In this document: positions 2,925 to 46,577 of the stretch, piece after piece
Layout of the letters: each line of letters begins with the position of its first letter
Position numbering within the stretch: position 1 is the first letter of the stretch
Source: Bilabrum cf. latius
Lineage: Eukaryota
Assembly (NCBI GenBank): GCA_965178125.1
Contig: OZ237735.1
Span: 1,736,001 to 1,800,000, forward strand
Length of the DNA stretch: 64,000 bases
Direction: 5' to 3'
Notes under the pieces: model-generated
The model's input: only the letters and a program-made list of their open reading frames with translations
Told to the model about the DNA's origin: nothing
The model's database searches: none
Made by a program: the position numbers and the translations under genes

Positions 2925-3407
2925 TGTTTTGAAGATTATGCTCAGAAAGTCTGCGTTGTCATCGAGAACACACCGACTTGGCCACACGTAATTGTCGCCG
3001 TATCGCTCAACAGTGGAGCAGCCGTAGATGTATCGTTATTGATGACAATCGCCACGACGCTGTTAGGTCGAGATTCGCGAAGGAGAATGGTCTGGAGAAG
3101 TCTAGACCCTGCGACCACGTGCCGGTTGTAACCATTGTGCGACGAAATTTTGGTTACAACCACTGTGTCGCTCAAACCTCAACGCTCCAGAAACTAGCCT
3201 TTTTCTTCGGCTATCCAAGAAGGGACCAAGCGTTTTACTCGGCCTTGTTATTTAAGAGCTAATCTTGCTTGGCAAGGCGACTAGATAGTAGCTGTAAGCT
3301 CAATATACTCTGACTATCAGCTTTCAAGAAGAATCGGCTGGACTCTGCCGCGTGGATTTGACTGAAAGACACGAGTTCCCAGCCTTGATTGGCTTACCAG
3401 TCGGATT
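2925..3407. promoter_or_regulatory. Short divergent intergenic region (about 480 nt), probable bidirectional promoter and 5' UTRs
   Basis: Lies between the head-to-head start codons of the KDM4-like gene (2924, minus) and the giant gene (3408, plus). No specific promoter element identified. Confidence 0.45.
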
Positions 3408-6400
3408 ATGGTTAGGATAAATGTAGCGCTAGCCGCAATGTGGCTGGTTGTGGGGAGCTCAGCCAAGCTTGATTTCGCTGAGCTAGCTTTGGATTCTACC
3501 GCGGTACCAGAGGTATCCAGCGCACACGGTGAGTCCCTTCAATTGCAATTCCGGCGCAACTTTTGCTAGTCCAGCTTAATTATCGTCACACGTGATATTT
3601 TTCTGGTTTTCAAACGCAGTCGATGTTGATGATGTTGTGCAGGCCTCGGGGTGTCGCATGGCTTCGATCGTATCGCCATCTTCGTAGTGCGTCTCCACTA
3701 ATGGTGGCTCAGCATATGCACATGAATCATCGCACAGTATTACTACCGATGGCCTGACCATTGGCGCCTGGGTCAGGGTCTTTGCCGCTGATTCTGGCCC
3801 ATCGCGATCGGTCTCTGGATGCCTCATGGCCGTAGGTAGCCCGGCAAGCACCGCTCGCGCTGAAGTTGACCCCTATACGGTACCATCTATCTGTCTTGTC
3901 CATCGTGGAACTCATTCTAGCGATGTTGGTGGCAACGATGACTTTGATATAGGAGCCTACGCGTGGGCAGCGGGCGCTGGGCAGTGCCAACAAGCCACGG
4001 AGTCGTCTCTCTGGCCCTGCAGCGGCATCGAAGAGCCCCCAGCCCTTGTATCGACCAGCGGAGCTGCAGAACAGAGAGGTGGGCTACTCTCAGGGCAAGC
4101 TGGTGGGCGCGCTGTCCATGCCGGAAGCGGGGCCCGTCGAAACCGGTGGCATTTTGTTGCTGCCTCGTGGTCGGCGTCTGGGCAAGGGCAGGCCACTGCA
4201 ACGATGTTCACGCAGGGCCTCGGCCATGCTACTACGCAGATGCTTTCTGTTGCAACGGGAACAACGCCTCTAGCACTCGGCATACCATCGTCGCCTTGGA
4301 TCGTGGGCGCAGTGGCGAGCCCCCACACCGTAACAGCAGGGTCGACCGAGCGGCCGCAAGCGACACCCCTCCTGGGTACTCCATGGCTTAAGCTCGATGG
4401 TAGCGTCGGACTTGCGCTTGCGATTAGGGCAGAGGTGGCAGGTGCCTTTTTGTACGGCCGTAGCCTATCGCCAGACGCTCTCGCTACGTTGGCCAGCGGT
4501 AGATTGGCTGCGTCCGGCATGCTGCCGCCGCTAGCTGGGGCCAGCACATTTGGGCTCCGGTTCAGTGGCCAACGCTTATCAGGAAACGATGTGTTGGCAG
4601 GGTCACCAGGAGTCATTGTTGAGCTGCCTCACATGTCCACGCTTGCAGCGGTTCCAGCTGCGGACGGGAGCCCCTTCGGTGTTTCGCTCGACGTGACCGC
4701 TGACCGAGTCGAGGGTGCTCGGGCTGGGCACGTGATGATACTGCTCGAGCACGTTTAGGACGGGCAGCTTTCGCTGAGACTTTAGCTGCGGTCTGCAGAC
4801 TAGGATGGTTTGAGCAGCTCCCAGTACCGAGTTGAGGTGATCGCATGTCCTGCATGCACTGGCGGTACTGGCCGGCTGGTGCAGTGGACACCTGGCTAGA
4901 TCCTGACTTTCGCTGTTGATGGTGATCACACACCCAGAATGCGGCGACTTGAAGTGGCCTGGACTAGCGATGAGATATCTCTTGCCATCGACGGGCAGTC
5001 TGCTGCAATCACTGGAGTTGCGAACCTATCAACAGTTGCGACGCTTGGCCAGCTGCCGGCGAGAGCTTGCATCAGCAATCGCGATGGATGGGTCATCGCT
5101 GCATCAGCCTCTTGCTCTGCCTACTCCGCCGCAGAGAAGGACGCTTCCAGTTTCAGGGGATCAGTGTCTCGGTTTCGAGTCCTTGGTTGGCCAGACGCAA
5201 TTGCATTCCTTTCTGCAGCGGAGCAGGACAGGTATTCAGCAGGGATTGCAGCCATCTCCAATGCACCCTCGGTGCTTTCGCTCGATTTTTTGGCCGGTAC
5301 TGGAAGCCATTTGATTGCTTCATACAGTAACTATGCTTGGCCAGCCGCTGCACCGTCCACATAGACTGCTGCAAGCGTTGTATTCGAGGTTGTTGGTGCA
5401 GCATCGACCCTGCAGGACACCCTGGAGTCCATAGACAGCGCAACGCAAGGCCTGTTTGGGGACAATCTCAATGGCAACACTCCGAAGTGGTGCACCGTGT
5501 CAGCGGCTTCTGGTGCCTCTTTCACCAATTAGAGCATCCCAAGGGCTCTTGATGTGGCTGGTCTCTTGTCTACGAGTGGTAGGCTCGCTTTTGGGGGACA
5601 AGCTGCAGCTGCAGCTCGAGTTGTGTTATCTGCTCGCGAGCAAGCCACCACAGGGGTTGGCTTGGCCTTTGTACTGGACACAGATGTCGCCGTACGCTCG
5701 GCCGATGGGACAGGCTTGGTAGCAAACGCTTGCATCGAAGCAGCCGTCGGATCTTCTGCAATCAACGACCGACACGCGTGCCTCGCTGCAGTGGCTGGCC
5801 AGGCGCTTGCGTCCATCGGAATTCAGAAGATGGTTGTTGCCTCATCGCTCTTGTACCCTCAATCAGACCTGGCGAGCTGTACCGATCTTCAGTCTGCACT
5901 AAAGGTGGAATTTACGCAGCCGATCACTGGCGCAGGGAAACGGCTCGCTGTGGCTCGGGTTACCTAGTCAGTTGCAGTGTTGGCGGCCTGCTTCGATGGT
6001 ACTATCCTTGCTAATGTTGAGGTTGCAAGGCCATCGCTTCGCAGCAACGGCGAAGCCAGTGCATTTCTTTCGCTAGACGTGCACTTCCAGCGTGGGAACT
6101 TGAGCAGCAACGTGCTGCGATATGCGCCAATAGAAGCCGCAGAAGATGCCTTTTTGAGGCTGTCTGATCCAGTCGCTTCCGCCCTAAATGGCACTGGCAT
6201 TGATCTTTTGTCGGTGGCTGCACTAGCCTACACGACCGTGTCGTTTCCTTCAAGCTTGGCCACTAGCACCATTGACCTGGTTCAAATGCTGGGCACACAT
6301 GTTGCTCGCAGTTTGGACGAGACCTCGAGAGCTGCCAACTCGGAGTGCTCTGCGGCTGGGACTGGTGCCTACCAGTACCAATAGGATGCGATGGCCGTGC

Positions 6401-9400
6401 TGACAAGCTCACCAGCAATAGCGCTTACGGTAGCCCTGCGTCCCCCCTCCGGTCCTTCTTTGGCTTTTTCGCAACATGGCGGTCACAGCCGCTTAGTAAT
6501 GGGCAACGGTAGCGTGCCTCTGTTCCAAGCGGCCGATTTGGACGTTGGTGAGGGTATGGGCGGCTAGCTGCTTGCTGATCTCTCCGTGTCAGAGGAGTAG
6601 ATTTTCAACGGGACAGAATCACCGCTGGATCTGGAGCGGTCAATCGCAACAGACGCTTCAATCGTGTTGCCCACGTCAATGGAGGCGTGGGTTGGCAGGA
6701 AGGACCTGCAAGGGTCCGATACGGAGGGGCGTATGGTACGCCAAGCCCGATTTCGCTTCCGACAAGAGGGCAGCGAGCGCTCTGTGGGTAGTCTTAGCAT
6801 GGAGATGCCCGCCACTCCGAGGTCCTTGCGGAGAAACGGGGCGGGCAGTCTGCGGAGGGGTTTCCCGAGCCGCGCAGTGGTCGATGTAGTTGTGTCCGAT
6901 GCAGGCGGCAGCCTCGAGCAGGGCGCAACCGCTCTAGCCAGGCGCTCCAGTTTTGCTGTAGGGGTTCGATCGTGCAATTCCGAGCTGCGCCTTGCTCCAG
7001 GACAAGCCACTTTTCTTGCGCCGCTGCTCGATGCACATGAGGATCACGTGGTTGAGATCGGGCTAGAATCGGGTAGTGTCCCTGCAGCAATGTCAAGGTA
7101 TGCCTCGATCGAAGCGGCAGCTACCGCAGCGAGTGCCTCCAGCGAGGACGTCCCTGCATTGCCGTGGATTTGGTGCAGCGCAGGCTCTTCGCTCACCCCA
7201 GCCGTAGGCGCACGTTCAGCAGGTAGCAGCGTGTTTTGTCGCGTTCCGATGGACGCTATCATTGCACAGAATGCTTCTGCAACGAATGGCTTAATATCGG
7301 TACAGATGCAGCTTATAAAGGTCGCCGTTGACTCCGTGTGCACCTCGAGTAGCTAGCAATTACAATTGGCTATTGGTTCCCTGGCTACTGTAGAGGATAG
7401 CACCAAGTGCTTCTCTGACGGGCACGGATCGCTGCAATGGCAATTGATGCTAAACGCCTCTGCGAATGGCTTGCGCGATGATCAGATCGTGGTGTCATGC
7501 GAGCGCCCTGATGGAACTGCATTTGAAGGATTTGCCGTTTCTAGCTCCTCTCTCTCGCAATATGTTGTGGAATGTCCTTGCCGTGGCATGCTGGCGGTTG
7601 GTTCGGTGTTCGCAGGGAAGCTTGACGTTAGTGTTGGTCTCAGCATTGGACCACTCCGTGGCCTGGCACAGATCGCTTCGCACATGAGTGCCCATCTGTT
7701 GTTGAGTCCCAGGATAAACAGCGCCAGCCAAGATCGCTCCGGAAACTTGGTTCTGCATGGCCAGAACTTCGGTTTGCTCACCAAGCCAGTCTGCTGGATA
7801 GAAGGGCTAAGCTTGCCAGCCACTCGCGTGAGAGAGGGTATCAATTGCGGACCCACTCCCGCGATTGCATCGCTACATGGATTCAGGAGGTTGGATGGCG
7901 CCTGCGGTCCCGCTTGCCCCGGTCTCGCTGTGCTCGTGTCTCTGTTCGATGAAGGCTAGGTGCCTTCACCAGCATAGCACAGGGGTATTGAGCTGGTGGT
8001 GAGTCAAATGACTGGGTACGCATCAGCCGATAGAACCAGGCAAATCAGAATGGTGCTCCTGAAAGCACCTGCTATTGCTGGTCACTCTCCAACAGTCATC
8101 AGCACCGTGTCTCCAGTCCCAGTATTGCTCAGACTGTCGCTGCAAGCCAATGCAACATCTTGGGCGGAGGTGTAGTTAGGAAGAGTATTTTGTGCGTTTA
8201 GAGGCTAGCATGGAAATGAGACGGTAGCAGAAGGTAGATTGATCGAAGAGGGTGGCTATGTATCCGCGGCTTGCCATCCCCCTCGGCTTCCGGCCGGAAC
8301 GTACACTCTCAGCGTGCGACCAGCCGGTGGCATGCTCTGGGAGCCAAGCAGCGGCTTAGCCTCTGCTGTTTTGCGTGTGGTCTCCAGATCTGCTTCGTTC
8401 CGTGTAGCACCTGGCCAAGCCACCTACTTGACTGTGGCTGGCAACGACTCGATCGATTCTTCTGGTTTCGAGTTTGACCTAGATCACGATGGAGATGCTC
8501 AAGTATTTGAAGCAGGAGTGCATTGCTAGCTTCGATTCCAGTCATCGGATTCCAGCCATACATTTCGAACACCTGCTACTGTGCTGGAACCGGGAGTTGT
8601 GCGATGCCAAGCACCTCCGGAGGCACTACGAGGTCAGGGATCAAGCGAAAACTTGATGTATATCGTTGCTGCGCCTGGTTTGGCATCTGAAGATCTTATC
8701 AGGAGCCCATGGCAAGATACAGAGGCAGCTACAGTTCGTCTGACCTCGCCATTGAGTGTTTCTATTGACCCTGCTGCACTGACCATTAGTGGAGCTGGCT
8801 GGAGCAACATCACGTTCGCTTTGAACAGCGATTCACAATATGACGTCGTGTGCACTTTTTGCGGCTTCTATGATTCTCCTGCCGTGCAGAATTAGGACAT
8901 TTGGACCTGCAAGGCCCCATCCATGGCTACACTGCTGAATATCAGTCGCTGCCCCGAATAGGAAGAAGGCCAGCTCCAGCTTCGTGTGCCGTTTTCCGTA
9001 CGGCGGCGTCGCGATGCTTTGCAGCTCGCCCCCTAGAGAGCTGTTGTTTTGATTCATTCGGACGTCGTTGCTGATTTACGATCGACAGTCCCCGTGATAG
9101 CATCTGTGTCTCAATCTTATCAGCTTAATCTGGATGGGGTTGACGCTGTGCTTAGCGGGGCGAGCGCTGCATCTACTTCGACTTTGGTTGTCGAGTGCTA
9201 GACAAGTGTCGGTGCAATTGTTGCCGCTCGCGCAGAGTAGTGGACGACAGCATCGTCTGTTCCCATCGAGCTTCTCGAGAAGGATTCGAAGTGTCGACTT
9301 GGCTTGCGGGTGGGTGAATCTGTCATGTTTAGTCCGCAACACTTCAGGGCGGTACGTGTGGAGCCGTTTGCACCCTCCTACGAAGGCTCAATACTACGAT

Positions 9401-12400
9401 TCTCGGACAGCTCTGTCGCAGTGAACGTCCGCCGGTCAAATTTTGTATCTGGTCTATCTGCTTCTTTTCAGTGTGCTGTTAGCTCCGACGGGTTGACATT
9501 TAGGTTTGTACCTGCCGTTGCCGTCACAGACTATGATAGCAGAATTGAAGTTCAGTGTCCGCTGCAACTGTCATGCTCTGACGACCAAGCACGGGACATT
9601 CGCGTTGCTGTGTTGCAGCACTAGTCGATGCAGCCTGAATCTGTCGAAGCATTTACCAGCATACCTGCATTGCAGTGTCTGTCGCACGCTGCATCAGTGC
9701 ATACAGGAACATTACGGTCCAGAAATTCTACCGAGGCAGTTCAGCTAGCTCTCACGGGCAACTATGGCCTCCCTGCCGGGTTCCATTTTGAATGCTCATG
9801 CGGTGGCTTGCTGGCTGGATTTGGTGCTTCGGGGTCATCAATCCCTTGTGTTGCATCAGATCAATGCCTTATTGACAGCAAGTATGTGTTTGAAGCAGTC
9901 GTTGTGGACGAGTCGGGTAGATATGCTCCAAGGGCTGACAACGTCAAGGTGGAGATTGGCGCCGCACCACAAATTCTGGCAGTCTTTGGGACTATCGGCG
10001 TGCGGAGGATCCATCTACAGCAATCTATAGTCCTTTTGAATGCATCAGTGGAAATTGATAGCGCCGTTGGCCAGGTTGCCCCATTATGCCGGCTCGCGCT
10101 CCTTCAGCGAAACCGAACTGTGTACGTGCTCGGAGAAGCAAGTAGCTTCGGCGTGTCGTCTGGTCGATTATCATGCACTCTGAATGCTGGAGAGATTCAG
10201 AGCAGCATTCATGCTGGAAGCAACTCCATTGGATACTTGGAGGTAAGCCTGGACTCGGTAACTTTCGTTCGCGAGCCTTCCCCAACGCGAATCATGGACT
10301 CCGATGCTTCTAGCATCGTGCCACTGTCAAGATTTGCATTGGGCATGAATGGCTCGTTAGCATCGTTTAGATTGCCAATTGGTGGGCACAGTGGCGATGC
10401 GGTGTGCGTCTTCCGGGGTCTCGGTGGAGCTGTATCATTCGAGACGTCAACTACACTGTCGGAATTCCAACGGCTACTCCAGTGTGACCTGCCCCCGCAC
10501 GCAGAGGGGAACTTCTTACTGAGCCTCAAGTCAGAGAGCATGGGCACAGTTTAGGCTGGCACCGTTTCTATAATTCGAAGTGCCTCAGCAAAGTCGCTGG
10601 GTGCAAGTCGAAGTGGGAGCACATTGACAGTTTCTGCACAGCTTGACTTCACGCCGAGTACAGATTTGCATCCTACGGCAGGGGTATGTACAATTGGCGC
10701 AGATTCGGATGTACAGGGCATTTGGAGTCTAGCTAATGACTCTAGCTCAGGCGAAGCATCCTGCGTTTTGCAAGGATCTGTGCTGCCCGGGCGATAGCTC
10801 GCATGTTTTCGCACTGAGGAGGCCCAGATAATTGCATGCGCTTTGGTGCACATTCCACACGAAGCCAGTTTAGCTGTCATTTCTGTTGCCCCATCTACTT
10901 TGACTGATGCTGATGGTCTGGTTGAAGACTATAGTGGATAGTTTTATCCAGTGGCAGCAGGCTCTGTTGCAGTAGATATAACTCCTGTGGAGCACTCTAG
11001 CCTACTGTAGGCTACAGCAGCAGCCGGGCAGCAAATATTTTGCGTTTGGCATGTCTTGTCACACCTCGAAATTATTGAGCGTGTAGCTTGCTTAGAGAGT
11101 CTTGGTGTGCAAGATCAAACTGCTAGATGCCTGCTTCCCTCCGATTTGCGCGGAGCAAATTCAACCCTGTTGTCACTCGCTGCTGGTATCTCGTGCAATA
11201 AGGCCTCGAGCATCTCGTTTCCGAAGCAGCTTTTGTTTATGCCTGTGCAATCGCGCGCAATTGGAGCTACGCTTCTGGTTGGCCTGGATGCATCAGGACA
11301 ACACGAGCTTGTAGTGCGCACATCAGGAGCCATACACCCGAGCTCCTTCCTTTTCGACTGGTGTGATGGCAGGCGAAGTATGGATTGCGTTTCGTCTTTT
11401 TAGTGTCATCCCAGCTAGTTTGCTGATTTCATCAGTTGCTTAGGCGGTGATTCCTCCTCATTTGACCCAGTCGTGCTGCGAAGCGCAAGGCTGTTTCAGA
11501 GCGCCGACGGATTCAACTGGATTAGCTCTGCATTGAAACCTGGCGCCTTGGATGTCATAATTTCACCGGAGCTGGACTTGGTGCAGCCGGCACTTCTTGT
11601 TCGTGATGGGGGGGTTCTTAGATTTTATTTGAGAAACGTTGACACCGCAGCCACTGCAGCTAGGCTCTCTGTCAAGGTTGGTGGGGCTTTGTGCCAGACA
11701 CAACTTGCGACTACTTCGACACTTGAATGCCTTGCACCACCCTCCTGGATAGTCGGTAGCACGAATAAGGTTCCTATATCCGCATCATTTGAGGCGGCCG
11801 CAGGGGTTGCAAGAGCGGTATCATTATCTGGTCCAGGTTACGTCACATACCTTGACGGTGTGCGCGTGGTGTCGTTCATCCCAAGTCGAATAACAGCGGG
11901 TGCGACGACTGAGCTACGCATTGATCTGCAAAACGCTGCCTTGTGGCTAGCTGCAGCCCCTGGTATAAAGGCGCAGTGTACTGTCGGACCGTTGACCACA
12001 ACGAATGCCACCATCGATGTGAACGATGGCTTGGTTCGCTGCGATGTCCCGCGTCAGCTTGTCCCAGACAGTCCTGTTTTCGTCAAGGTACATTTGTATG
12101 CTGGAGATGATCTACTACTGACGTCGTCATCGCCGGTACTTGTACCAGTGCTGGCACCATCGAGTGCAATCGGCCGGTCGCTGGTGAGCAGGGACAGCGG
12201 AGACCCTAGCTTTGTTCTCGTCAGCATAGACATGGAGTCTTCATTCAGAAGTGTAACTGCAGAGGTATTTTGTAGGGCGTGTAGTGTGGTGACTCAAGCG
12301 AGTTTGATCTCTGTCAGCTAGGTTTAGTGCAAGGTATTGCAGTCTTGCTTGGCGGGTGGAGTGGAGACTTCCGTTAATGGCTTTGACTGGGAGCACATTG

Positions 12401-15400
12401 ATGGTATTCACCTGCAGGTGGTTGAAGGAACCATAACAGGGATTAACCCGCGATTCATCTCACAAGATTCCACTACTTTACAGCTGACGGCGCGGGGATT
12501 GGCGGTGCCTTACTTGCGAGTCTTCCTTGCTGGCGCGCCCTGCGTCTTGCCAGGGGTAGGGCATGGCACTGTTGGTTCCGTGCTACTTGGCGAGGGAGGA
12601 ATAACTACAATTACATGTGAAAACGTTGTGTACAACAGCACAGTTTAGTCACAGATTGTTTCAACAGCCTTTGTTCGACTTGGAGCAGGGAATATAGCGT
12701 CTACTTCAACGTCGTAGGGTGGGGTGGCAGTGTTTAGCGGCCAGACATTCTCCGTTGCTGCAATTGGCGAGCTGTCGCAGGGATACTCCACCTTCAAACC
12801 TCCAGCTAGTTGCACAGGCGCTAACGCTTCATTGCACGAGAAAACACTGCTGCAGTTCAGGTTTGATGGGGATCTTAGGAGTCTAGTGGATCAGGCCGGA
12901 GTCCATCTTTCCTGTGAGCTTGAGCTAGTCGCAAATTCGCTTCAAAACAGTACAATAGTTGGGAGTGGCAGCCTTGCAAGCGATGATATACTCTCGTGCA
13001 AGATGGATATTGAAGACCTGCTAGGTGCTGCCGCAAGCTGCTCCAGCTATCGGCAGCTTGCTAGAGCACCTCTGACAATCAAGGTTGTCCTTGGCGGTGG
13101 CGGCTTGGATACGAAAGTGATACTAGCCCGACATTTTGCGTAGATTCGAGCTCTTCCATTGTTTGTGCAGCCAGCCAAGTAGCCCACCGTTAGGATTGTC
13201 GAGACGGCTAGCTTGCTTGAATTCAAGGTTAGTGGCTTGCTTGACCGCAGTTTGGTTTCTGGGGCAGCACTGCAGTGCGTACCGTCGGATGGGCGCTGGA
13301 GTTCTGCAGTAGAGTTTTGCAGATTTGAAACAGGATTGTGCTGCACGATTCCACCAGTGACGAACGTTGGAGAGGAAATCGTGTAGGTACAAGTAGTGCC
13401 GCACAAGTTCGTGCTGCATCGGCAGGACACTGTAGTTGTGCCACCCCCACGCATTTCGTCCTCAACTGTTGCATCTGACGATGCAAATACAGTTGTCATC
13501 AGTGGTAGCGATTTTATGGCATACTCTGGGTTGGACCTAGAATGCGCTGTGGCACAAAGCGCGGAACAAATCGAGGTAGAATCAGCTCGTGCTTCCATCG
13601 CAAGCGACTCTATGTTGAGGTGCAAATTCGGCCGCTAGTATTCTTCAGCTTAGATTTGCCTTCGCCCTACTGGCACTGTATGCACCATTTCTCAATGGGT
13701 GGAGATTGATTCGAAGTGGAATCCATGTGTAGAGCAGGTGGCTCCCCGCTCAGCTGTTTGGGACGGTAGCGGAACCCCATGGCAAGTCGTGCTTGGACAA
13801 CACAACAGCGGATTATGCGAGCAATTGGATCCCGCAGTGACGTCCATTCATGCCGACTCGGCACAAGGTGTGTTGTGCTGCGTGTTCGATTTTGGATGGT
13901 CATCACCGCTAAAGATGCCTGCAAATGTGTACAGCGCTCGGGGTGTTTCAAGGATCGTTGCTGACTGTGATCTTGAGGCAGCAGCAGGGCCTAGTATTCG
14001 TGATATCGTTTCTTCAGTTGGAATTGTTCGGGGTGTGCTGGGTGTTCAGTACTGTGATAGCACTCGGCAGCCACTACATATGCCAATAGCGGCTGCACTT
14101 ACTCGCCAAGTTACTCTTCGGGATGTTCGGCCCGCAGTGCTTAGACTTTCACGAGCGGGAAGTAGCACTCGAGCCGTGACAGTTGTGTTTTACGCTGATC
14201 ACGCTATCCCGGAGGATGAGCAACGAATCATTTGCCGCCTTAATGATGTTTTGGCTTTCTCGATTGCTCGTGTGTCGGCAGATGCGGTCATGTGCGATTT
14301 CAGCTCCGATTCTCTTACACCTGGCAAATACTCGCCATCACTGTCCGTAAACGGTGCAGATTTCAGCGAACTCGATACAGTGGTGATCGTGCTGCCCCCG
14401 AGCTCGCTGAGGTATGTATCGGGCAGTGGTGTATCGGACCCTATTCGGTCGAACCGGGACATCGAGATTTCATTCGGACTGGAGGTATCACAGTCTAGCT
14501 CGATATTCGCGTGCAGTATTACCCCGGGCGACTATGCGGCCGCAGCCGCTGTGCGAGTTTTCGCAACTCAGTTTGGCACCAATGAGTTCCAGTGCAAGAT
14601 GGAGCCCGATGTCCTTCACAATGCATAGAGTGCAGCTGTGCAGGTCCTTCAGTGCCCGTCTGGCTCCAGACTGACTGAGGACTGTGAGATCATATATACA
14701 GCTTCGCAAGTCCCAGTGGAGCACTCCGATGACTTGCATGTCATGTCGCGCGTAGCACTTGTGCGTGAAGATGGGTCCTTTAGCATCGAGGTGTCGGGCC
14801 AGAACGTCAGTATACTGTGGCTTCGTGAAACCGGCAGTGAGCTCAATGCCTGCACTCAGCTTGCTTGCGAACACCAAGCCAGCACACTTGTTTGCTCTGG
14901 ATTTGAAGCCAATTACACCAAAGATTCTTTGGATGTCATTGCTCCGTCGATAAGTGAGCCGGATTGCCTTGCTGAGCCGGCCATCGGCGTCGTCTCACTA
15001 TCTGGCGGCGCATTGCAGCTGCACGCGAGCCCGTAGGAGCTCTTTATTGGCTAGATTTCTGCATTCCAAATTCTGAGTTTAGTTGGTCCAGGCATTGGGC
15101 GCTTCATTGGCTCCTATTGTGAAGCCTCTCGCAATGGCCAGCGGTTATTCTCAACCCCAGCTATTCGGTTGTCCGACGATTTGGTGGAGTGCGCGAACGC
15201 TGCATCGTTGCTTCAGTCCTCCGACGTGTAGCCAGGCACTATGATTCTGGCAATTAATACATGCCCTAAGTGTGTTGCGCTGGCTGCAACGCGACTTACG
15301 GGTCATGCAGAAGTGGATGTGCAATTGCTGCCGAGAGTATCTCTGGTGTCGCCAGATGTCATAGCCGTTCATGACGGTGTTGACGAGCAGCTCGTAACAG

Positions 15401-36400: not shown

Positions 36401-39400
36401 GCTTTGACAACTCAACGGATGACTTCGGCATACAAACATCTATGTTCCCCGCGCGGTACTGGCAGGAAGCTCACTAGCTGCCGCTGTCTCCGGACTCTGA
36501 GTTCTAGGCAATTCGCGGTCGCTACTGTCTTGACGATCAGTGTGCTAGACTTGCTGATTTAGATGACGTTTCATTGACCGATCCATTTTTCAGCCACAGG
36601 TCCGCAGGGGTGAGTATGCGGCGGCCGCGCCCGTGCCCCCCAGGAGTACACTGTCGGGCAGGAACTGCATCGCCTGTGGTACCAGCTCACTTGGACTTTG
36701 CCATAGTGCCTGGATCTGGCGAAAATGGTAGCGCAGCGCAGCCATGCCTGCCAGCTGCTTACTGCCCGGAGGGGTCGGCAACTCCGAGAGGCGTCGACCA
36801 ATGTTAGCCAGGCTTTTTCTGTCCCGGATGGTGGGGTACCGAAAGGCCTGCAACAGCGCAGGTGTCCGATTCAAATTCAACCAACTCCACCTCATCGAAC
36901 TCAACTAGTTCTAGCCCAGGTTACGTGCCGGCTAGCACGACCGATGGGGCACAGATAAGAGAGTTGACGGATTACTCAAGCGGGCGTATTCCATGTCCAG
37001 TGGGCACAAAGTGCCCTCGATCTGGATTGACGGAGCCAGTACCGTGCGAACCTGGTACTTTCAATGGCATGATCGGACAGCTGGAGTGTTCGACCTGTCC
37101 ACGCGGGTACATTTGTCCCGGGTTTGGACGCATCGACCCGGCAATTTGCCCTCCTGGATACATCTGTTCGGATGAAGGACTAGCAACTCCGAACCTGGTG
37201 TGCCCAGTTGGATTCTACTGTAACAATGGTACAATAACTGGAGATCCGTTCCGCAACGACACTTCTCTGCGCCCGTATCCGTGCAGGCCCGGATCGTGGT
37301 GCCCAAGAGGCGTTGGTTTCGATTTGGTTCGCGTGGGAGATCCGCTGTATGCCCAGAATTGTACTGCAGGTTTCTACTGCGAAGCTGGCTCCACCAGCCC
37401 GACGGGTTCTGGTATTTGTCCTCCGGGTTTCTTCTGCCCAGCAGGCACAGCTACTCCGATTCCAACTCCGCCAGGCTTCTTTGCTGAGAACGAGGGTACT
37501 ATCCAGCCTGCCAGGTGTCTGCCTGGCACATATGCACCAACGATTCAAACGGTGACTTGCATCCCATGCCCTCCTGGTACTTCCTGCGAGGCTGAGGGTA
37601 CGATCGAGCCAGACGTTTGCCCACCTGGGTCGTACCAGGGTGCCGTCGATACCGACGCACCGGTTTGCCAGTCGTGCCCTCAAGGCACTTGGTCGAAGCA
37701 ATGGGGACTTCGCGACTCAACAGAATGCATCCGATGTGCGCCTGGTACTGTGTGCCCTGTCTTGGGCATGTTTGCACCTTGCACTCCGGTTGACCTGCCC
37801 CAGCCGTATATTGCGTTGAACGACGGGAGCTCGTACGAGGAGTGTCTTGAAAGGAACCTTCGAGATGGAGAAGATGGCGGGGGGGAGATCCTTCGCCGAT
37901 CCCAGGAGTTCTTCTGGGGCTACCCCACAAACGTAACTTGGACCACAGACGAGCCAGTGCCGACAATTGTGGAGGTGGCGGAGGATGCCGGTGGAGAGTG
38001 CTTCTAGAATTCGTAGCCGTTCGGTTCAGTCATCTATCAGCGCATGAAGGACTACCATGGTGCTCTGTATTTCATGCAGATAGGTGAGCTATACCAAGGG
38101 TATGGAGACCCCAACCAGTACAACGGCTTCTTCGGAGAGGGTGCGGGTCCAATCCGACTGCCGGTTCCCAATGGGGGTCTCTACTACCCGCCTCGGAACT
38201 GCACCTCTGGATTCTTCTATCGTGGCGAGTGGTTCCCTGGGTCGTGCGAAGCGGACCTTATCTGTGATGTTCCGGATGCGATCACTATCTAGACGGAGTC
38301 CTCTCCGTGTCCTGAGGGATTCGTGTGTCCAGAGGCCACTGAGGAGTCGGACACCAGCGGCTCACCTTGTCCTGCGGGATACTCGTGCGATGTCGGCACC
38401 ACGCCAGATGTCAGTTTGTTTGCACCACGAGGTACCTACAGCAACTTGTGCCCTGCCGGCTATGTCTGTTAGCAAGGGACTCCGTTTACCGGTCGATTCC
38501 AGCTTTAGTGCCCGCAGAACTATTTCTGCCCGACCGGGACCGCACTGCCGTAGCTTGGGTACATGGCAAACGATGCAATCAACAGAGATCTCAATTCAAG
38601 CGCTGCAGATCCATTTGCTCCAATTCTGCAATGCGGCGTACAGCTACCGGGCGAGCGGCTGCCGCGGTGCATATCAACGCATGACCAACGATGCTTCGAT
38701 GGGATCAGTGAGGAGGTCAAGCAGCAGACTGTCATTCGTCTCTTCGATGGGGAGGAGGAACGAGGGCTGGATGGCGATCCAGAGGCTGACCTTGGACCTG
38801 TAAACGCTGCAGATGTCTCCAATCTATTGTGCGCGCGAGACCACAAGTGGCGGTTAGTTCGGGCTGCCCAAGAGCGCCGCGTGTGCTTTTGTGCGGAGCA
38901 GTACCGCCTCGCACACGAAGTCTATCGCCTTTGGAAATGCACTGGTGAGAGCGGTCAAGCCCCGTCGCCGTCCATCGTTGAGGCGCAGGCTCAAGCAGAT
39001 GCATCTGGCGGCACCGCGTCGCAGACAATCGCGCAGACACAGCGCTTGCAATGCAGGTTCGTCGGCCCGGATCCTTCCACCGCCTTGGATGCCGATGTGT
39101 GGGATCACAGTGCTCCGAATGGAACGAACTCCCGATATGCGGACATCAATGGCCAGTCTGTTGGAAGATGGGACGGAGTTGCGCTAGAGTGGTTCTTGCA
39201 CGGAGATGCTGTCATGCTTCCGTTGCCTGGTGATTCCCCCCACTACTTCCGCTAGCAGTGCAGGTCCGAACCCGTGCGAAACTGCACCCTGACCTCGGGC
39301 GCGGAGGCGAGGCTGGGTGGGGTCTCATGGAGCAATGCAGGAAGAGCATGTCCGCAGTTCTGCTCTTTTATGGAGCTCAAGCGTTACATTGACCCACTGT

Positions 39401-42400
39401 TTGAGCCCTTGGCGCAGGCGAAGCTGGCCGGTGAGATCGAAAGAATCGACAGGTTTTTCTATGATATCAAGTACGTTGTGGACCTAATTGACACGTATGA
39501 TCTTGTTCGAACGTCGACAGAGGCTGTTGAGCAGGCTACGAATCTCATTGCTGAAGTGGACAGCGATGCTGCGATTGACTCGGGCGTCGTTACAACAACA
39601 AACTTGGTAACTGCTGCGGACGTGAACGTTCTGACTCTGCAGCTCACTGACAACGAGCAATATGCGGTCGGAGACAGGCTACCAGAACTGGTACGCTTGG
39701 TTGAGCCGGTCGGTGGATTCCAAAGCGCCCTAAATGCTCTTGTTGATGATGCCAGGCAGGTGGCAGCTAGCGGAGCCCCACTAGAGACTGTCCGAGCTGC
39801 GGAACTGGAGGTCGCGATTGCCATCGAAAGTCCCTCGACTCTGTGGAAACCGGCACGTCTGGACGTATGCGGATGTGAGGACCTCCTGCGCTGCCCGAAT
39901 GGAACGTTCAGTGGGACCAGGGCAGAGAGTATTGAGTCTTGCATGACGGATACTGCAGAGCCCGAAATCCTGCAGAGATCCATGCCTGTCCCTCGTACGA
40001 ACCAGTGGATATCGGACCCCGACGAGCTGGCCGAACTGACTGATCCAGAGTCACCCATCAGTGGTGTTGGCAAGCTGAGGCTTCTCGGTATGGAGACTGC
40101 GGTTGTCACTTTCAATTTGACCTCCCTAGCTGCTAACATGACCTACTTTGAGCATTACAGGCTCAGTGCTTACGTGGATTGCACCCCATGTCCCCCGCGG
40201 TACGGCTGCGACACTGGGACTACTCCACCAACCTGCTCAGCCTCCGCAGAGCAGCAGGCATCGGATGGCTATGACTGTGAGGCCTGTTGTCTGTGCTAGC
40301 GCAAGGTACTGCCTAGGTGGTTTGAGGTCTACGATGAGGCTCTGCAAGTGCTTGTGAGCAACAATATCGCCGGGGACGACCCCTAGGATGAATTCTGGCC
40401 TTATCCGGACAACAAGCACACAGTGTGGCAGATTGAACTCAAAGCGCTCCGCTCTATTGAGGTACTGCTCGTCTTTGAGCTGTTGCACGGCAGGTACTAT
40501 CCAGAATTCACCACTGAGCTTGTCAATGTAGCAGATGTGGTGGTTTAGACGCCGTCCCGAGCGGTTAACTTCCGGGAGGCATACCAGAAGGATGATCTTG
40601 CAGCTATTTTTTCGGACGTATGGGACGTGGTTGCGTCCGACTATGAGGATCCGCTTGGTCCAGGGAGCGCGGACGCGATTGACTAGCCTGCACCAGAGGC
40701 CTCTAATGTAGCGACAGGTACATCAAGCCTCTTGAGTGACGCCGCTGCATCTATCGCAGCTCGCCGTGTCTTGTAGGGCGCTGTGGAGGATTCAACGACT
40801 TCAGGGTCAGTCCAGCAGATCCTGCCTTGGGACTAGCCAGACAAGAATGGTCGATTTTCTAGGGGTGGCTTTAGGTTGGGTGACACGTTCCTTGGCACCA
40901 CGGCAGTATTTGCCAGACCCGATGATCCTCGGGGTGAAATCTTCCCACCGAGGTTCTCGTTTTTGGCCCTGCTGGACAGGAGCGATTTTGATACGGATGC
41001 TGAAGATTCTGCCAGTGCGCTGGCGCTCCCATTGAACCTGCCTGAGTCACTGTAGAAGCTGCCTGGCGGTCCCCGCAGTGGCTATGCTCGATTCATTGAG
41101 AATGACATGTTCATTGGACGGAATGCCGAGTGGTCTGACGGCGATCCTGGGTACGTCTTGAGACATAATGGCAGCCGATCTGCACTTGAGGCGGCTGCTT
41201 TGTCGGAGAGCCTGCAGGAGTCAAGTCGAGAGGCGCAGGCTGCGGGTCTCCTGGACATTGTTCCCGATGCTGGCGACTGTGAACAACGCGGATAGACGCG
41301 GCGGCCAGCCCGAGATGTCGTGATCGATAGCCTCAGCACAGTTGAGAATGAGCTCACCTGGTTTGACAATGCCGACTCTCTGGAGACAGACGGTTCCATC
41401 GACATCTTGTCGCTGCCATACCTGCCATTCTTCTCCAACTGTGAGTTGGGAGACTCGCAGATGTACATTGCTCGACTTATGGAAGGGCATCCCGACTGTT
41501 CTCTGGTCCATGCAGATGACACGAAGCCGGTGCGGCCATATCCGTTTGATCTTGACCTGGACCCAACTGCAGACACCTGCAGCGTGAATGGGCGCTCGCT
41601 GTGCCCATTGGAGCGAAACGGGGGTCCATCAACAAGGCAGTACGGCGCGCAGGTGCACTGCTACTACGAAGAGAACATTTTTGAGCCGGGATTACGCCGG
41701 CGGTGGTATGAACTGTCAGCGGACGAAGTGATGTTCTATTTGACCAAGCAACCTGTGAGCTACTAGGAGTTTCGACCAACCGCGACGCAGCGGTGGGGCA
41801 GGGCGAACTCCATCGCCAGTCTGCTCGGTACTGATGACCTCGTTGAAGTATCAATTGATCCTCTCATGCCTGGCTCTGAACTGCTGGTTCCTCGACGAGT
41901 CAACCTGGACCTAGAATTTTTCCAGGAAAATGCTGCACGAAAGCGAATAGTGCGGGCAACCGTGGGCTTTGAGCAGTTTTGCTCCATCAGCGATCGCGAT
42001 TCTGATCTCAATAGGCTAGCGAGACTGAATCCCCCCATCCTGCCATGCACCGTGGCAACAATCGAGGCAGAAACCAACGGTACGGGTAACGGTATCTAGA
42101 GCGATGCATCCGCCGTCTTTGGCTTTGATGTGCAGACTGCAACTAGTGGTGGAATACCAACGACATACAATGACAGGAACTACACGCTGGAGGTCAGAGT
42201 GATCGCGCTTTCGTACCTAGACCTTCTCAATCTGTTCGAGTTTGACGCAGACGTGTACGTTGTGTTCTTCTTGCTCATGTGTTTTGTTGTTGTCATGGGT
42301 GGCGTCTCCATATACCTGTGCTTCCGCTGCGCCACCAGATTGCCCTACGTGCCCCCGTTGCGATTCTTCGATTTGCTGTACGTGATGTCGCCCGCTCCCA

Positions 42401-45400
42401 TCTACGGCGTGCTCATTGCTTATGTGCCGTTCGCCTTGGCACTTGCATTCACGTGGGTTTGGTTCTTTGAGCTTCGAGGCGCTGAGCCTTTTGAGGAACC
42501 GCAAGCAATCAACTTCGAGGGTGTTCCCGAGAATTGGGCGTCCAGGGGAGTGATTCAAGAGGAGGATCTCCTACGATTGCTGAGGGGAAGATACGGTACG
42601 GCATTATAGTTCGTTGGGTTCTTCACGCTCGTGCTGGGAGCCTACTTGCTCATACCGGAGGGCGTGCAAGACCCGCTGTACGATGATGATGTTCGAGTCG
42701 AAAAGGTCAAGTTCGAGGCTGATGCGTACGACGACCGTCTGTATGCAGGCGAAAATCTGGGCGATGTTACTTCCGATGAGAAGGCTGAAATAACGCAGCC
42801 CAAGGTTGGGGAAGGCGGCGAGCGGAGCTACCTAGCCTTCCCGTCTTGGCAGCCGTTCCTAGGTCGCCGGGCTCTCATGATCCTGATCGCGTACCTCGTA
42901 CTCTTCATCGATTTGGCCGTGCTGGAGTTCTCATTCAGTGGAATCTACGCAGACAATCAGTACCTGTCTATCGTGACGTTCAAGCTATTCAACATGTTCC
43001 TGGAACTCATGCTGAATGAGCTCATCCGAGAGAACCTTCTCGTCTCTCCAGTCATGGTTCTGAGCGTTATCATTGAGCTGCTGATCACGCTGGGTGCCGT
43101 CGATTTCACGGACTTCGTCGTTGCCTACTATGTTGAGCTGTCGTTGGGTGTGGCTGAGCGATTGTTCATTGACCCTCTCATCAAGTCGATACAGGCCTAT
43201 GGACCGTTGTATGGCATGAACTGCAAGCGAATGTGCCGCCGAAACCGAGCGATTCGAACCCGGGCCGAGCGGAAGGCAGATGAGGAGCAGTACCGCGCAG
43301 CCTTAGAAACTGTCTACAGGGAGACCGAGTCTGTAGAGCCTATTCTAGACAGCTACTTGACGTACAGCAACAACTTGGCTGGGTTGCTCTTGTCACCAGC
43401 GATCCAGGTATTCCTGCTGATCACAGACACTACTGGAATTCGGGTAACTCAAATCCCTGAGCTGTACGAGATCAGGAGCACCGACTTGTTCTACTACACG
43501 ATCTTTGCCGTCGTGATTATTCCTGCCACAATGGCAATGGACATCTTCCTGATGAATGCTCTCGAGTTGATCCACGGGTGGAAGATTTACGACTTCCTAG
43601 TGTTCCAAGACTTCAGGTTTAGCGTTCGAGAGAAGAGGTGGCAGATGAATCAGAAGGACTTCGATACGAGCGTGTCTGGACCGCTGTAGAGCGCAGACCT
43701 GCTGTGCTTTTCGTCTCAATTCTTTTTCATCATCAGCGTCACAGCATTTGGGCTGTTTTTTATCATCATCGGTATGTTGATCCACCTCAGGATCGGTTGG
43801 AACATGCTTGGAGATCCTTGGCTCCTTGTCATTCTGATCGTATCGTATTTGTTCGTCTACTTGTCTAAGTGGCTGTTCTTCTACATTGCCGAGTTCCTTG
43901 GCATGTGGCCTATCCCTGGCGTCAGATCGCTGCTCGATAACGTGTCGTGGGACAAGAAGATTGCAGAAGCGCAGGCTGAGGCGAGGCGCAAGGCTCTCGA
44001 GGAGGCCGAGAACAGGCGAATCGAAGCCAAGGCGCTGCGTGATGACGCCTTCCGTCACAGGTGGATCGAGCGGAACAAGCCGTGGCTTCTCAAGCAGCTC
44101 GAGAGACTCCTGACTCCTCGGACCCTACAGCGCGAAGGTCCTGGCGGACATCCTGTGGAGTCGTACGTTCGTGAAGTGTACGATGCACTGGTTGCTGAGG
44201 GTCGCCGCGGCCTGGGAATGGAAGCCGGTCCTGGTATTGACGGGCTCGTGGATCGCGGGCTTGCTGCCGGACGCCGTCGTCCAGGCGATCGCGGGGATAT
44301 TTCCGATACGGACTCGGATGAGCTAGAGCAGCCGGAGTGGGCCAAACGGCCGTTGGATCCGCTTCCATCTGGGGCCGAGGAAATGATGCGCATGTGGCTC
44401 GCCAAGGCACGGCGCCGGCGCATGTACGAGATCGCGGTCGAGGACCTGATCCGCATCGAGAAGGAGAAACTCAGGCGCTCGCTACCTGCTCCTCGAGACG
44501 GCGGTCCACAGCGCTTTGACGTGTTCTTGGCACTGCCGTCTACGCAGGAGGCCCACCCACTGGCCCTGAACTACTACATTCGAGACTATGAGGTTGAGTT
44601 CCCCGAGGCAGCCAAGCCAGACGCTGAGTTCGACAGGAACAAGTGGAGGGCCTTCTTCAGGGCCAATGCTAAGTACACTGTTCGAGAGATCGATCGACAG
44701 GCCGCTGCGCAGCGTGAGCAGCAGCGTCTCGACCGGCAGCGGCGACGGGAGCTGCAGGGTCGCCGCACCAGACCAGGAGATATCAGCGGCAGCGATTCGG
44801 ATTCAGACCTTAGCCACATGGAGGATGGCAAGCCTGCGTTCGACATCATGGTGGTGGATCGCGACAAAGCAGTTGGCAAGCTGCTACGCAAGTGGCTTGG
44901 CGCCGCTCGTACGCGTATTGGAGGCGTGTTCCCGAAGCAAGAGGCTGCCGGAGATGTCGCCAAGTATCTGCAGGAAGCCCGAGATCTCTCCAGGAAGCGC
45001 GCAGAGCGGAGAGCAGGCCTGGGCTCCAAGGACAGGAAGGGCAAGAAGTCACCCACCGGCACGAAACCAGGCTCCAAGGATGGTGCAGCAGGATCAGACC
45101 CCAGCAGTGCCTTCCCGCAGTCAGTGCAGGTCAACGCTGCCTCTGCTGGTCTCATGCAGCGCTGGATCCAAGCGGCAAGAGACAGGCAATTTGCGGCCAC
45201 TCGTGCCGAGCTCGACGACCATATGGACCGTCTGGAAGACATTGTTGGGCCGCAGTTGCACGAGGCTAACGACTGGTACTTTGGTGTTGGTGTCCGGCTG
45301 CAAGGCGAGGAGCTCGTTGAGGATGGCAGGAGGCTGGCCCAGGAGCGGCAGCGCGGGGCGAGCGAGGCCGAGCACAAGGCTCGCAGGCTCTTGCATGAAT

Positions 45401-46251
45401 TTGACGAGCGACGGACAGAGCAGCAAGCCAAGTCTCGCAAGGAGCGCGAAGAGATGCGGTCCGCTTGGGAGGACGAGGTGCGCTAGAAGGACGCCGAGCT
45501 GGCAGAGCGCGCAGAGAACCTGCTCGCCATCATGGTTGCAAAGGACACGCGCCTGAGGCGGGAGCACGACCTTCCCAAGGCGGACCCGCGTCAATACATG
45601 ATGGCTGCCGCGAAACCAATGACGACATCGTCTGCGTCGGGGGCGGCCACTGGTGGTGCTGCCGACGAGAGTCCAGCGACAGCTGCCGGAACCACAGCGG
45701 CGAGGGGCGGCGCCAAGGATGCCGCTGGGGCAGGCGCTGTTGAGGACGAGGGCGAAGGGCGCGTGACGGATGCTGCTACCAAATCGGATACTCCAGATGT
45801 GGACTCCCTCGATCTCCCAGACGTGCAGGAGGTGCCCAGCGTGGACACCGACATCATCGACAAGATCACTGAGGATGAAGCCGAAGACATACAGGGGATC
45901 GCTGCGAATCTTGCGGCGGCGGCCGCCGAGCGAAGTAGTCACCGACGGGCAGCCCAGGCAGATTTGCAGGCAAGGTTGCGCGAACTCGGCCTCAAGCAAC
46001 AGAAGCGGTCCGCTGCACTCGAGAACCGACGCAAGCGTGCCGAGCGGGAAGCCAACCAAGTCAAGTTCCACGCCGCAGAAGCATCTCGTTCGCATGAATC
46101 GAAGTGGAATGGTGAGGCTGAGCGATGGCTAGAGAAGGTGGAGCGTAGACTGGAGTAGCGACGCCGCGAAGAGGCAGAAGAACTTGGCAGAGAGGCTGCT
46201 GAGGACCTGGCCCAGAGACAGCGAAGGATGCAACGTGGCGCAGGCTTCTGA
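3408..46251 (+). CDS. Giant (~14,250 aa) multi-pass membrane surface protein: signal peptide, LamG-like, many IPT/TIG-like repeats, GCC2/GCC3-type Cys repeats, ~9-11 TM helices, cytoplasmic tail; exons 3408..3528 and 3620..46251
   Basis: About 60 consecutive plus-strand track ORFs (3826, 4939, 5554 ... 43774, 45532) are all in frame 1 and each ends at TAG. Reading the gaps by hand gave about 136 in-frame TAG and no TAA or TGA between 3580 and the TGA at 46249..46251. N-terminus MVRINVALAAMWLVVGSSA looks like a signal peptide. Domain motifs run straight through TAG codons (GPVSGG*LIRIAGIGF, C*PGFFCP, PL*SADLLCFSSQFFF). Confidence 0.9.
3529..3619 (+). other. Spliceosomal GT-AG intron (91 nt, phase 1) in the giant gene
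   Basis: Donor G|GTGAGT at 3529 and acceptor TTTTTCTGGTTTTCAAACGCAG| ending at 3619. It contains the frame-1 TAA (3577) that bounds the long frame upstream. Splicing joins the signal-peptide exon (frame 3) in frame to the long exon (frame 1). Confidence 0.8.
3751..5190 (+). other. Two probable laminin-G/concanavalin-A-like (LamG3-type) domains of the giant protein
   Basis: GLTIGAWVRV (3751), RWHFVAASW (4144) and EVAGAFLYGRSLS (about 4432-4470) fit the LamG3 pattern. The second unit has LEVAW...LAIDGQ...FRGSVSRFRV (5152). Confidence 0.55.
7700..35900 (+). repeat. Array of degenerate IPT/TIG (Ig-like) repeats within the giant protein
   Basis: Recurring pattern P-x-I/V-x-S-V-x-P...G-G...V-x-G-x-N-F...C-x-F...C-x-x-P...V-S-x-N-G-x-D/Q-F. 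Clearest copies are PRIDSTDEVLVGSSGGTVITVRGRNFLNTSTLACNFNRIAVPAVFVDSETLLCESPP (about 34711-34881) and VSGVQPAAVLADGGPVPLLVSGSNFINTTSLRCAIG...YISSTIVLCLIP (about 35410-35574). Also SLSVNGADFS, VETSVNGFDW, EVSNDGLQFT. Boundaries are approximate and the repeats are visible at protein level only. Confidence 0.7.
35923..38550 (+). repeat. Cysteine-rich GCC2/GCC3 (ephrin-receptor-like / TNFR-like) repeats within the giant protein
   Basis: More than 20 CPxGx(Y/F)CP-type units: CPPGSYCP, CPAGTYCP, CPQGTYQP, CPVGHICP, CPAGFVCE, CPEGHYCF, CPRGYICP, CPVGFYCN, CPPGFFCPAGT, CPAGYVC, CPQNYFCPTGT. Confidence 0.85.
42253..43908 (+). other. Multi-pass transmembrane domain (about 9-11 helices) of the giant protein
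   Basis: Successive hydrophobic segments: VYVVFFLLMCFVVVMGGVSIYLCF, IYGVLIAYVPFALALAFTWVWFF, AL*FVGFFTLVLGAYLLI, ALMILIAYLVLFIDLAVL, LLVSPVMVLSVIIELLITLGAV, LAGLLLSPAIQVFLLI, LFYYTIFAVVIIPATMAM, FFFIISVTAFGLFFIIIGMLI, WLLVILIVSYLFVYL. Confidence 0.85.
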
Positions 46252-46577
46252 GCCGTGGACATTTTCTGTGTGTAATTAATTGAACTACATTTAGTCGAAA
46301 TACCTTTAGTAAACGATTAGTCATCAGAGCCAACTAGTAGGCTTCGTCGTTGTAGCGACGAGGTCGCCGCGGCTCTCTGTGTATCTGTGCTATTATTATG
46401 TACTGCTACTACTAGTAGTTATATCAAAATAATATGAAGTAAATAATAAATTGGGAAATGCAAGTTTGGAAGATTCGGAGCTCTCTTGGATCCGCAAAGG
46501 AAAACCCCAAGCTGTCTTACGACACACAGACCCCATTAAGACTTAAATAGTTTACTCTGTGCTCAGCTAAATTTGAA

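Follow-up and report, generated by a model that had tools for sequence, protein, structure and literature searches.

A 42.6-kb exon with TAG read as glutamine and the giant, probably surface-exposed protein that it would encode

Does a 64,000-nucleotide (nt) stretch of contig OZ237735.1 (assembly GCA_965178125.1, Bilabrum cf. latius, positions 1,736,001 to 1,800,000), here called the window, carry one enormous gene between its positions 3408 and 46251, or a scatter of small ones? Read with the standard genetic code, this span looks fragmentary. Its longest ATG-initiated open reading frame (ORF) is 570 amino acids (aa), and TAG as a stop splits the giant frame into 137 pieces, 71 of them at least 60 aa and 49 at least 100 aa long, which makes the figure of about 60 fragments given in a first-pass annotation of the window roughly right. 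With TAG read as glutamine (Gln), a single ORF of 14,197 aa with 136 recoded codons occupies 3658..46251 (+). The reading that we favor, and consider reasonably probable as a whole, is that of a two-exon gene with TAG as Gln and an mRNA of about 43 kb, whose 14,250-aa product would act at the cell surface as a sensor of contact or adhesion. Residue numbers given below refer to the protein starting at 3658 (14,197 aa); the full product from the ATG at 3408 has 14,250 aa.

A single open frame, its transcript and its genetic code

By direct count, the frame that runs from 3580 to the TGA at 46249-46251 holds 14,223 codons, 136 of which are TAG. An in-frame TAA or TGA that the first-pass annotation might have missed, and that would break the single ORF, was sought in these codons, and there is none of either. 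The remaining five frames over the same span contain 56-119 TAA, 130-181 TAG and 138-461 TGA codons, and chance cannot explain the open frame. Codon usage in the first 10,000 codons was compared with that of a midasin gene located elsewhere in the window; relative synonymous codon usage (RSCU) correlates at r=0.90 in frame 0, versus 0.36 and 0.53 in the other two frames.

A 5' untranslated region (UTR; 3216..3407 (+)), which starts where a transcript contig described below begins, contains no ATG. The coding part of exon 1 (3408..3528 (+)) comprises 40 codons plus 1 nt and specifies a signal-peptide-like N-terminus, in which a short basic stretch is followed by a hydrophobic run typical of signal peptides. 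It is joined in frame, across the only intron seen (3529..3619 (+); 91 nt, GT..AG), to exon 2 (3620..46251 (+)), which measures 42,632 nt including the TGA stop and contains 136 TAG, no TAA and no other TGA in frame. The joined coding sequence (CDS) of 42,753 nt encodes 14,250 aa, with a computed mass of 1,508.7 kDa and a pI of 4.95. The first-pass annotation had placed the start at 3408, nearly all of the TAG=Gln ORF in one 42.6-kb exon, and the product at about 14,250 aa and 1.5 MDa, and all of these proposals hold.

Contigs of four public runs were compared with the window over positions 3000-22999. Three studies have runs with contigs that contain giant-gene sequence, and in each of two of these studies a single contig spans the compared stretch. 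In run X5, which comes from another study and carries another organism label, a single contig of 43,007 nt (depth 36) begins 192 nt upstream of the ATG at 3408. This contig covers 3216-3527, omits 91 nt (GT..AG with the cut shifted by +1), and then follows 3619-22999 with no gaps and no differing letters. In run X1, the stretch lies in one 130-kb contig that retains the intron and is probably source DNA; runs X6 and X7 provide merely short pieces of low depth. Run X5 also contains another contig, of 2,944 nt and depth 158, whose end lies at 3048, where a divergent JmjC gene would start. The two X5 contigs break inside the 167-nt intergenic gap that separates this upstream contig end from the start of the giant transcript, and their depths (158 vs 36) are fourfold apart. 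Because of the intron-less joint, the break within the 167-nt gap and the fourfold difference in depth, X5 behaves like a transcriptome assembly; among the runs containing giant-gene sequence none is recorded as RNA, and the RNA status of X5, X6 and X7 is a guess.

Past window position 22999, the X5 contig has a further 23,314 nt and, if collinear, would reach to 46,313, 62 nt past the stop. Specifically, 192 nt of 5' UTR, 42,753 nt of CDS and these 62 nt sum to 43,007 nt, the length of the contig, and this arithmetic would place a 62-nt 3' UTR at 46252..46313 (+). A continuous transcript had been proposed as a check on the single gene; it is seen, collinear and with one intron, over 3216-22999, whereas for 23,000-46,251 it comes from arithmetic. 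Apparent loose ends at 19509 and 20646 were rejected, as they belong to a 2,598-nt record that is unrelated but for a match of about 20 nt.

All four long ORFs in the window contain sense TAG codons: 9 in 5-2281 (-), 136 in 3408-46251 (+), 14 in 46458-48788 (+) and 54 in 49004-64000 (-). Together (~20,700 codons) they are open when TAG alone is recoded, with no in-frame TAA or TGA, and they end in TGA three times, the giant's stop included, and in TAA once (n=4 genes). The ORF at 49004..64000 (-) encodes midasin (MDN1/Rea1), as indicated by 312 matches, the named ones being annotated as midasin. We masked its TAG positions as X, aligned it by BLASTP to 120 midasins, and scored columns with at least 30 homologues. 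Thirty TAG columns were covered at this level (>=30/120), of which 13 were conserved at 50% or more. Gln is the conserved residue in 8 of the 13, three of them at 120/120, and in the remaining five it is E, V, P, D and E. Compared with the profile of genuine Gln codons, that of residues in the TAG columns shows a correlation of 0.908; Glu, the next residue, reaches 0.388. Because of these eight conserved Gln columns and this profile correlation, TAG is assigned to Gln, in agreement with the first-pass annotation; as judged from the alignment, the code keeps TAA and TGA for termination and is of the NCBI table 15 type. ARAGORN found no tRNA within the window.

The available text of one report (PMC11687900) describes a TAG-only Gln code with TAA and TGA as stops in phyllopharyngean ciliates, Protocruzia tuzeti and Iotanema spirale. 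As described there, these lineages resemble the window in reading TAG as Gln and in stopping at TAA and TGA. Unlike them, the window carries a giant gene that clusters with Cafeteria, a stramenopile, and our full-text literature searches found no report of a TAG=Gln code in stramenopiles.

The conserved C-terminal module and its family

Searching 1.84 billion cluster representatives with aa 12,400-13,450 identified 895 relatives at E<=1e-3, 494 at <=1e-10 and 217 at <=1e-30. Top-ranked is a hypothetical protein of 3,811 aa from Cafeteria roenbergensis (KAA0165573.1, P0001 in our set; phmmer E 1.8e-284, 51% identity). Further relatives include unnamed metagenome proteins and proteins of Cantina marsupialis, Pythium, Phytophthora, Odontella, Ectocarpus, Chaetoceros, Andalucia godoyi and a Symbiodinium assembly. 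All of the named ones, which belong to stramenopiles, a jakobid and the Symbiodinium assembly, are 'hypothetical', and none is annotated as a member of the CRMPs, giant proteins that are considered below. Among the 150 matches listed the longest has 7,926 aa, and any comparison of length between the giant and its family is biased, since public assemblies frequently truncate long genes.

Residues ~10,100-14,197 of the giant are collinear with the Cafeteria protein from its residue ~145 to its end. In addition, when tiles of the giant were compared by phmmer with a set of 168 family proteins, those from aa 10,001 onward matched 37-164 of the 168, in order. Three Cafeteria proteins (FNF28_03425, FNF27_01581 and FNF31_03093; KAA0165573.1, KAA0176759.1 and KAA0162829.1; 3,811-3,907 aa) have the same TIG, Cys-rich, juxtamembrane, transmembrane (TM) and tail regions as the giant; unlike them, the giant has about 10,000 extra N-terminal residues without counterpart, and 136 TAG codons. 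A search of protist relatives with the C-terminal part and a comparison of their N-terminal lengths had been recommended at the outset, and it revealed that the Cafeteria orthologues start about where the extension ends. The full architecture had at first gone unrecognized as any named protein, an impression that did not survive, as its C-terminal ~4,100 aa are orthologous to the Cafeteria protein and belong to the family of 895. By these comparisons, the gene is an extreme member of an existing, undescribed family, and its unusual part is the ~10,000-aa N-terminal extension. Literature searches found no report on this protein family. A Pfam search on relatives P0002, P0004, P0009 and P0017 returned no families at E<=1e-3, and a protein-cluster search with homologue P0015 returned unnamed clusters alone, at 0.86, below the 0.9 level that counts as more than a lead.

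From a TM-domain alignment of 41 rows and 568 columns, we constructed a maximum likelihood tree. The giant is sister to Cafeteria together with a metagenome protein 84% identical to that of Cafeteria (SH-aLRT 100), and this group is nested in a 13-row clade (98) that contains Cantina. From this one gene family, the organism is most likely a heterotrophic stramenopile near the bicosoecids. Four database fragments of 136-270 aa (P0003, P0022, P0036 and P0052) are 95-100% identical to the giant and match aa 12,272-13,343. Two of the three fragments mapped, P0003 and P0036, end exactly before TAG codons of the giant, which is how standard gene finders had been expected to shred the gene; P0022, which comes from a variant differing at three positions, terminates at a site that reads GAG in the window.

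The conserved module opens with three TIG domains (33910..35574 (+); aa 10085-10191, 10298-10407 and 10547-10639), detected as three stretches by Pfam (TIG E 5.1e-20) and also by an iterated hidden Markov model (HMM) described below. Cys-rich repeats of the ephrin-receptor-like type follow at aa ~10,750-11,700 (35905..38757 (+)), where self-BLAST finds repeats to E 5e-22 and the Cys content is 5.6%. Ephrin_rec_like (PF07699) scores 22.4 and 18.8 bits in this stretch, below the cut-off of 23.1, and is present in the precomputed domain lists of the giant's relatives. A family-conserved juxtamembrane region (aa ~11,700-12,866; 38758..42255 (+)) is matched by 37-138 family members per tile and by no Pfam family. 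The multi-pass TM domain (aa 12,867-13,407; 42256..43878 (+)) displays eight strong Kyte-Doolittle peaks plus weaker ones. It precedes a charged, putatively cytoplasmic tail of 790 aa (43879..46248 (+)) with 145 Lys plus Arg, 145 Asp plus Glu and no Cys after aa 13,500, the first ~600 aa of which are conserved with Cafeteria protein P0151. The signal peptide, Cys repeats, multi-pass TM region and charged tail of ~780 aa described in the first-pass annotation are therefore all recovered, by the hydrophobic run of exon 1, self-BLAST, the hydrophobic peaks and residue counts, respectively.

Within the tail (44008-46248), three short acidic patches rich in Ser and Asp each stand 30-45 residues before a basic amphipathic stretch, and these basic stretches carry a conserved Trp-Leu...Ala-Arg pattern that is also found in the family consensus. 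The ectodomain of ~12,900 aa contains 107 sequons and 332 Cys. Because of the signal peptide, and of Arg residues that directly follow the first TM helix, the N-terminus would lie outside and the C-terminus inside the cell; the number of helices would therefore be odd, probably nine.

A predicted structure of homologue P0039 (768 aa), built on a 64-sequence alignment, has a mean pLDDT of 84.8 and a pTM of 0.85; in it, a beta domain of small size precedes some 9-10 long helices and cytosolic helices. When the TM model was compared by Foldseek with 350,542 PDB chains, the best E was 0.2, and rows for G-protein-coupled receptors (GPCRs) stood at E >= 0.8. VIA-align against 48,161 representatives gave a best Z of 7.0, to designed helical proteins; its OSCA/TMEM16 rows, at Z 5.5-5.9 and rmsd 7.2-8.7 A, have values that are common for helical models. 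A PDB search with the TM-domain profile returned just low-complexity noise (E>=0.086). As far as the models go, these scores permit no family to be excluded, and the most conserved part of the family appears to be without a recognizable solved counterpart, from which a new fold does not follow.

The N-terminal extension and neighboring genes

The N-terminal extension of ~10,000 aa (3658..33657 (+)) is without a detectable homologue among the family members or in a metagenome scan. The sole match of tiles from aa 1-10,000 to the 168 family proteins was a TIG domain at aa 6,371-6,500. The metagenome scan, with aa 1-1,100, yielded 56 pattern matches, none of which was confirmed, and self-BLAST at E 1e-3 found no repeats in aa 1-10,000, even with a search space as small as 14 kaa (thousand aa). 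By composition, the extension is acidic and rich in Ser, Val and Ala, and it has sequons and paired Cys. Pfam searches over 1,000-aa tiles and 5,000-aa pieces left eight of the first ten tiles empty, the others containing one TIG domain and a sub-threshold Laminin_G_3 match; a Robl_LC7 match at E 0.16 was disregarded.

The first-pass annotation had proposed two LamG-like domains forming a lectin-like tip, a claim that is now weak. One match to Laminin_G_3 (PF13385, concanavalin-like) lies at aa 146-208 (4093..4281 (+)), with a Pfam E of 6.6e-4 and 20.3 bits against a cut-off of 27.6; Pfam detected no second LamG domain in the first 10,000 aa, and a PDB sequence search with aa 1-560 gave no match at E<=10. 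Of the three Pfam families whose presence had been suggested, TIG was thus found, in the module described above, whereas Laminin_G_3 and Ephrin_rec_like both stay below their cut-offs.

A TIG profile was iterated on the 168 family proteins and then on the giant alone, with reversed or locally shuffled sequences as decoys. It converged on 12 TIG-like domains in the giant (E<1e-3), with no decoy matches. Nine of these are located in the extension: at aa 1535-1653 (8260..8616 (+)), 2682-2798 (11701..12051 (+)), 2882-2988 (12301..12621 (+)), 3224-3324 (13327..13629 (+)), 3537-3649 (14266..14604 (+)), 4365-4470 (16750..17067 (+)), 6019-6119 (21712..22014 (+)), 6386-6491 (22813..23130 (+)) and 9320-9409 (31615..31884 (+)). 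The eighth also matches Pfam TIG at aa 6,442-6,504 (E 4.1e-10), and the nine together make up 9.6% of the first 10,000 aa. At a threshold of >=0 bits the profile has 18 matches, versus at most one in each of 11 decoys. A three-Cys spacing is common to the TIG-like domains; counted over aa 1,100-7,000, C-x(65-88)-C-x(17-30)-C is found 27 times, versus 16.1 +/- 2.5 with a maximum of 28 in 200 shuffles. The idea of a very long TIG array is therefore borne out to the extent of 9-18 TIG-like domains in the first 10,000 aa and an excess of the Cys pattern, but most of these residues, notably aa 7,000-10,000, are without an assignable fold.

Upstream of the giant gene and on the other strand, the ORF at 5-2281 (-) has JmjC and MBT-repeat similarity (E 6.1e-33). 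Because the 2,944-nt X5 contig ends at 3048, additional 5' exons of this gene are likely to lie between 2282 and that position. Downstream, the ORF at 46458-48788 (+) is of the JmjC/cupin type (Cupin_8, E 4.4e-11). The midasin ORF ends in an acidic linker and a VWA/MIDAS region; it forms one open frame of at least 4,998 codons, needs no intron and continues off the window.

Possible functions and their implications

By analogy with other giant receptors, the most likely role of the protein is that of a contact or adhesion sensor. With its N-terminus outside the cell and its tail inside, the ~12,900-aa ectodomain would form a glycosylated, disulphide-stabilised filament, made mostly of beta-sandwich domains and a few hundred nm long if extended. 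Binding of a particle, a prey cell or the substrate by its distal part, or the resulting pull, would be relayed to the conserved membrane domain and the cytosolic helices. The main task of the extension would be to set the reach; as a chain of ~100-aa domains, it could span a few hundred nm. A similar mode of action is envisaged for giant receptors of the adhesion type and for the CRMPs of apicomplexans and ciliates.

In very large animal adhesion receptors such as ADGRV1/VLGR1, fibrocystin/PKHD1 and the plexins, beta-sandwich domains of the Calx-beta or TIG type are strung into long chains, in some cases with a LamG or pentraxin module, and are followed by membrane helices and a cytoplasmic tail. 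The giant is similar in that its beta-sandwich chains would end in membrane helices and a tail. It appears to have 8-9 helices, with no structural match to GPCRs above noise, and Pfam found no 7tm, GPS or GAIN match in it at E<=0.01-0.5. The CRMPs of Toxoplasma, Plasmodium and Tetrahymena are described, in the available text of two reports, as giant proteins with Cys-rich modules, nine or, in Tetrahymena, five TM helices, and variable N-termini that lie outside; they are proposed there to sense contact and to trigger rhoptry or mucocyst exocytosis (PMC9815656, PMC9670195). By that description, they resemble the giant in having a variable ectodomain and Cys-rich ephrin-receptor-/EGF-like modules, and probably also in their ~9 TM helices and outside N-terminus; they differ in being far shorter and in that Kringle, MAR or lectin modules take the place of TIG arrays.

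Several observations weigh against our favored reading of the locus. About 90% of the extension is without an assignable domain. An HMM built from 19 Cys-anchored units that had gone undetected recovered 6 of the 12 known TIG-like domains at E<=1, the best at 0.013, along with one decoy, and an AlphaFold prediction from the single sequence of aa 2,650-3,699 had a pLDDT of 39.6 and was unusable, so that its mostly beta structure is not evidence. Past aa 10,000 of the giant itself, most of the 33 TAG columns vary; Gln is the most frequent residue at aa 13,344 (77/155) and aa 11,453 (15/27). At the TAG at 36805-36807 (aa 11,050), the relatives have Pro in 54 of 69 cases, and at 42607-42609 (aa 12,984, in the third TM helix) they have hydrophobic residues in 99 of 127; these two TAGs may represent lineage-specific substitutions. 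As for the transcript, X5 is labeled 'RNA? (probably DNA)', and everything beyond 22999, the 3' end included, is arithmetic, the observed part being 3000-22999; the giant protein is known here from nucleotide sequence alone. A midasin tree (31 rows) put the window on a long branch (1.85) with seven unnamed metagenome midasins and, because of that branch, failed to place the organism. Finally, the TM domain matches no solved receptor or channel, and 'sensor' is therefore an analogy and not an inference from homology.

Some of these points bear on whether one protein is made at all. The extension might be untranslated, separately translated or an artefact, with only the ~4,100-aa module being produced, as could be suggested by the Cafeteria homologues, which start about where the extension ends, and by the giant being known from nucleotide sequence and not from a proteome. 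We give this scarcely any credence, since 10,000 codons contain no TAA or TGA, their usage fits midasin in frame 0 alone, a signal peptide begins at the transcript contig's first AUG and shares its frame with all that is downstream, and the sequence occurs in contigs of three studies, with a spanning contig in each of two. One protein could also be a passive structural fibre, that is, a membrane-anchored hair, coat or attachment filament of a mastigoneme- or glycocalyx-like kind, in which the TM helices anchor without signaling. A very long, glycosylatable, Cys-rich ectodomain would fit such a fibre, as would an extension that evolves too fast for homologue detection, which is usual in surface coats. 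Moreover, the only sequence match of the Cafeteria orthologue to a solved structure is Chlamydomonas Mst1 (PDB 8tx1, E 5.4e-4), in the Cys-rich part. However, Mst1 is a secreted filament subunit that is not known to have the giant's TM domain, and the match spans just ~140 residues of a common type of ephrin-receptor-like Cys-rich module. An anchor needs one helix, yet the 8-9-helix domain and its cytosolic helices are the best-conserved part of the family, with 217 relatives at E<=1e-30 and nearly invariant residues, which argues for an activity of the TM domain itself; we regard a purely passive fibre as unlikely.

Two further proposals would give the membrane domain a more specific task. 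If the module were homologous to the CRMPs, contact with prey or substrate could gate extrusome discharge or feeding. This analogy draws on the same layout, with a variable N-terminal ectodomain, ephrin-receptor-/EGF-like Cys-rich modules beside ~9 TM helices and an outside N-terminus, and on CRMP relatives that the available text of the same two reports places outside alveolates, in Dictyostelium (PMC9815656, PMC9670195). On the other side, a profile search for longer relatives gave one unnamed match and none linking the families, and the giant's named relatives include none annotated as CRMP, so that an exocytosis trigger of this type is not what we would expect. Alternatively, the helical domain might, like polycystin or OSCA/TMEM63, conduct ions or lipids, with mechanical gating by the filament. 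VIA-align does list OSCA1.2, OSCA2.3, OSCA3.1, TMEM16A and TMEM16K with 239-281 aligned residues, but these rows, at the Z and rmsd values given above, fall below designed helical bundles, and with Foldseek also at best at E 0.2 a channel or transporter with a giant ectodomain seems quite improbable. A contact or adhesion sensor remains the reading that we favor.

With an mRNA of ~43 kb, a 42.6-kb exon and a product of 14,250 aa, the gene comes close to the largest sizes known for eukaryotic transcription and translation in one piece. The locus also illustrates how stop-codon reassignment can hide genes: public collections contain it just as TAG-ended fragments, and a standard-code proteome of the organism would therefore be shredded. 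In the widest picture, which we offer tentatively and hold to be doubtful as a whole, a free-living, heterotrophic, Cafeteria-like stramenopile would use a TAG-only Gln code unreported in its lineage, and the giant would be the largest member of an undescribed, eukaryote-wide family of giant contact sensors, whose conserved 9-helix TM domain would have a fold that lacks a solved counterpart and would be ancestral to the apicomplexan CRMP invasion sensors. If true, TAG-only reassignment to Gln in a stramenopile-like organism would be an independent case of the uncoupling of UAA and UAG. The comparison also charts an uncharacterized family of 895 detectable members, in stramenopiles, a jakobid and others. 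If this family is kin to the CRMPs, the origin of the apicomplexan invasion sensor could be approached through free-living flagellates.

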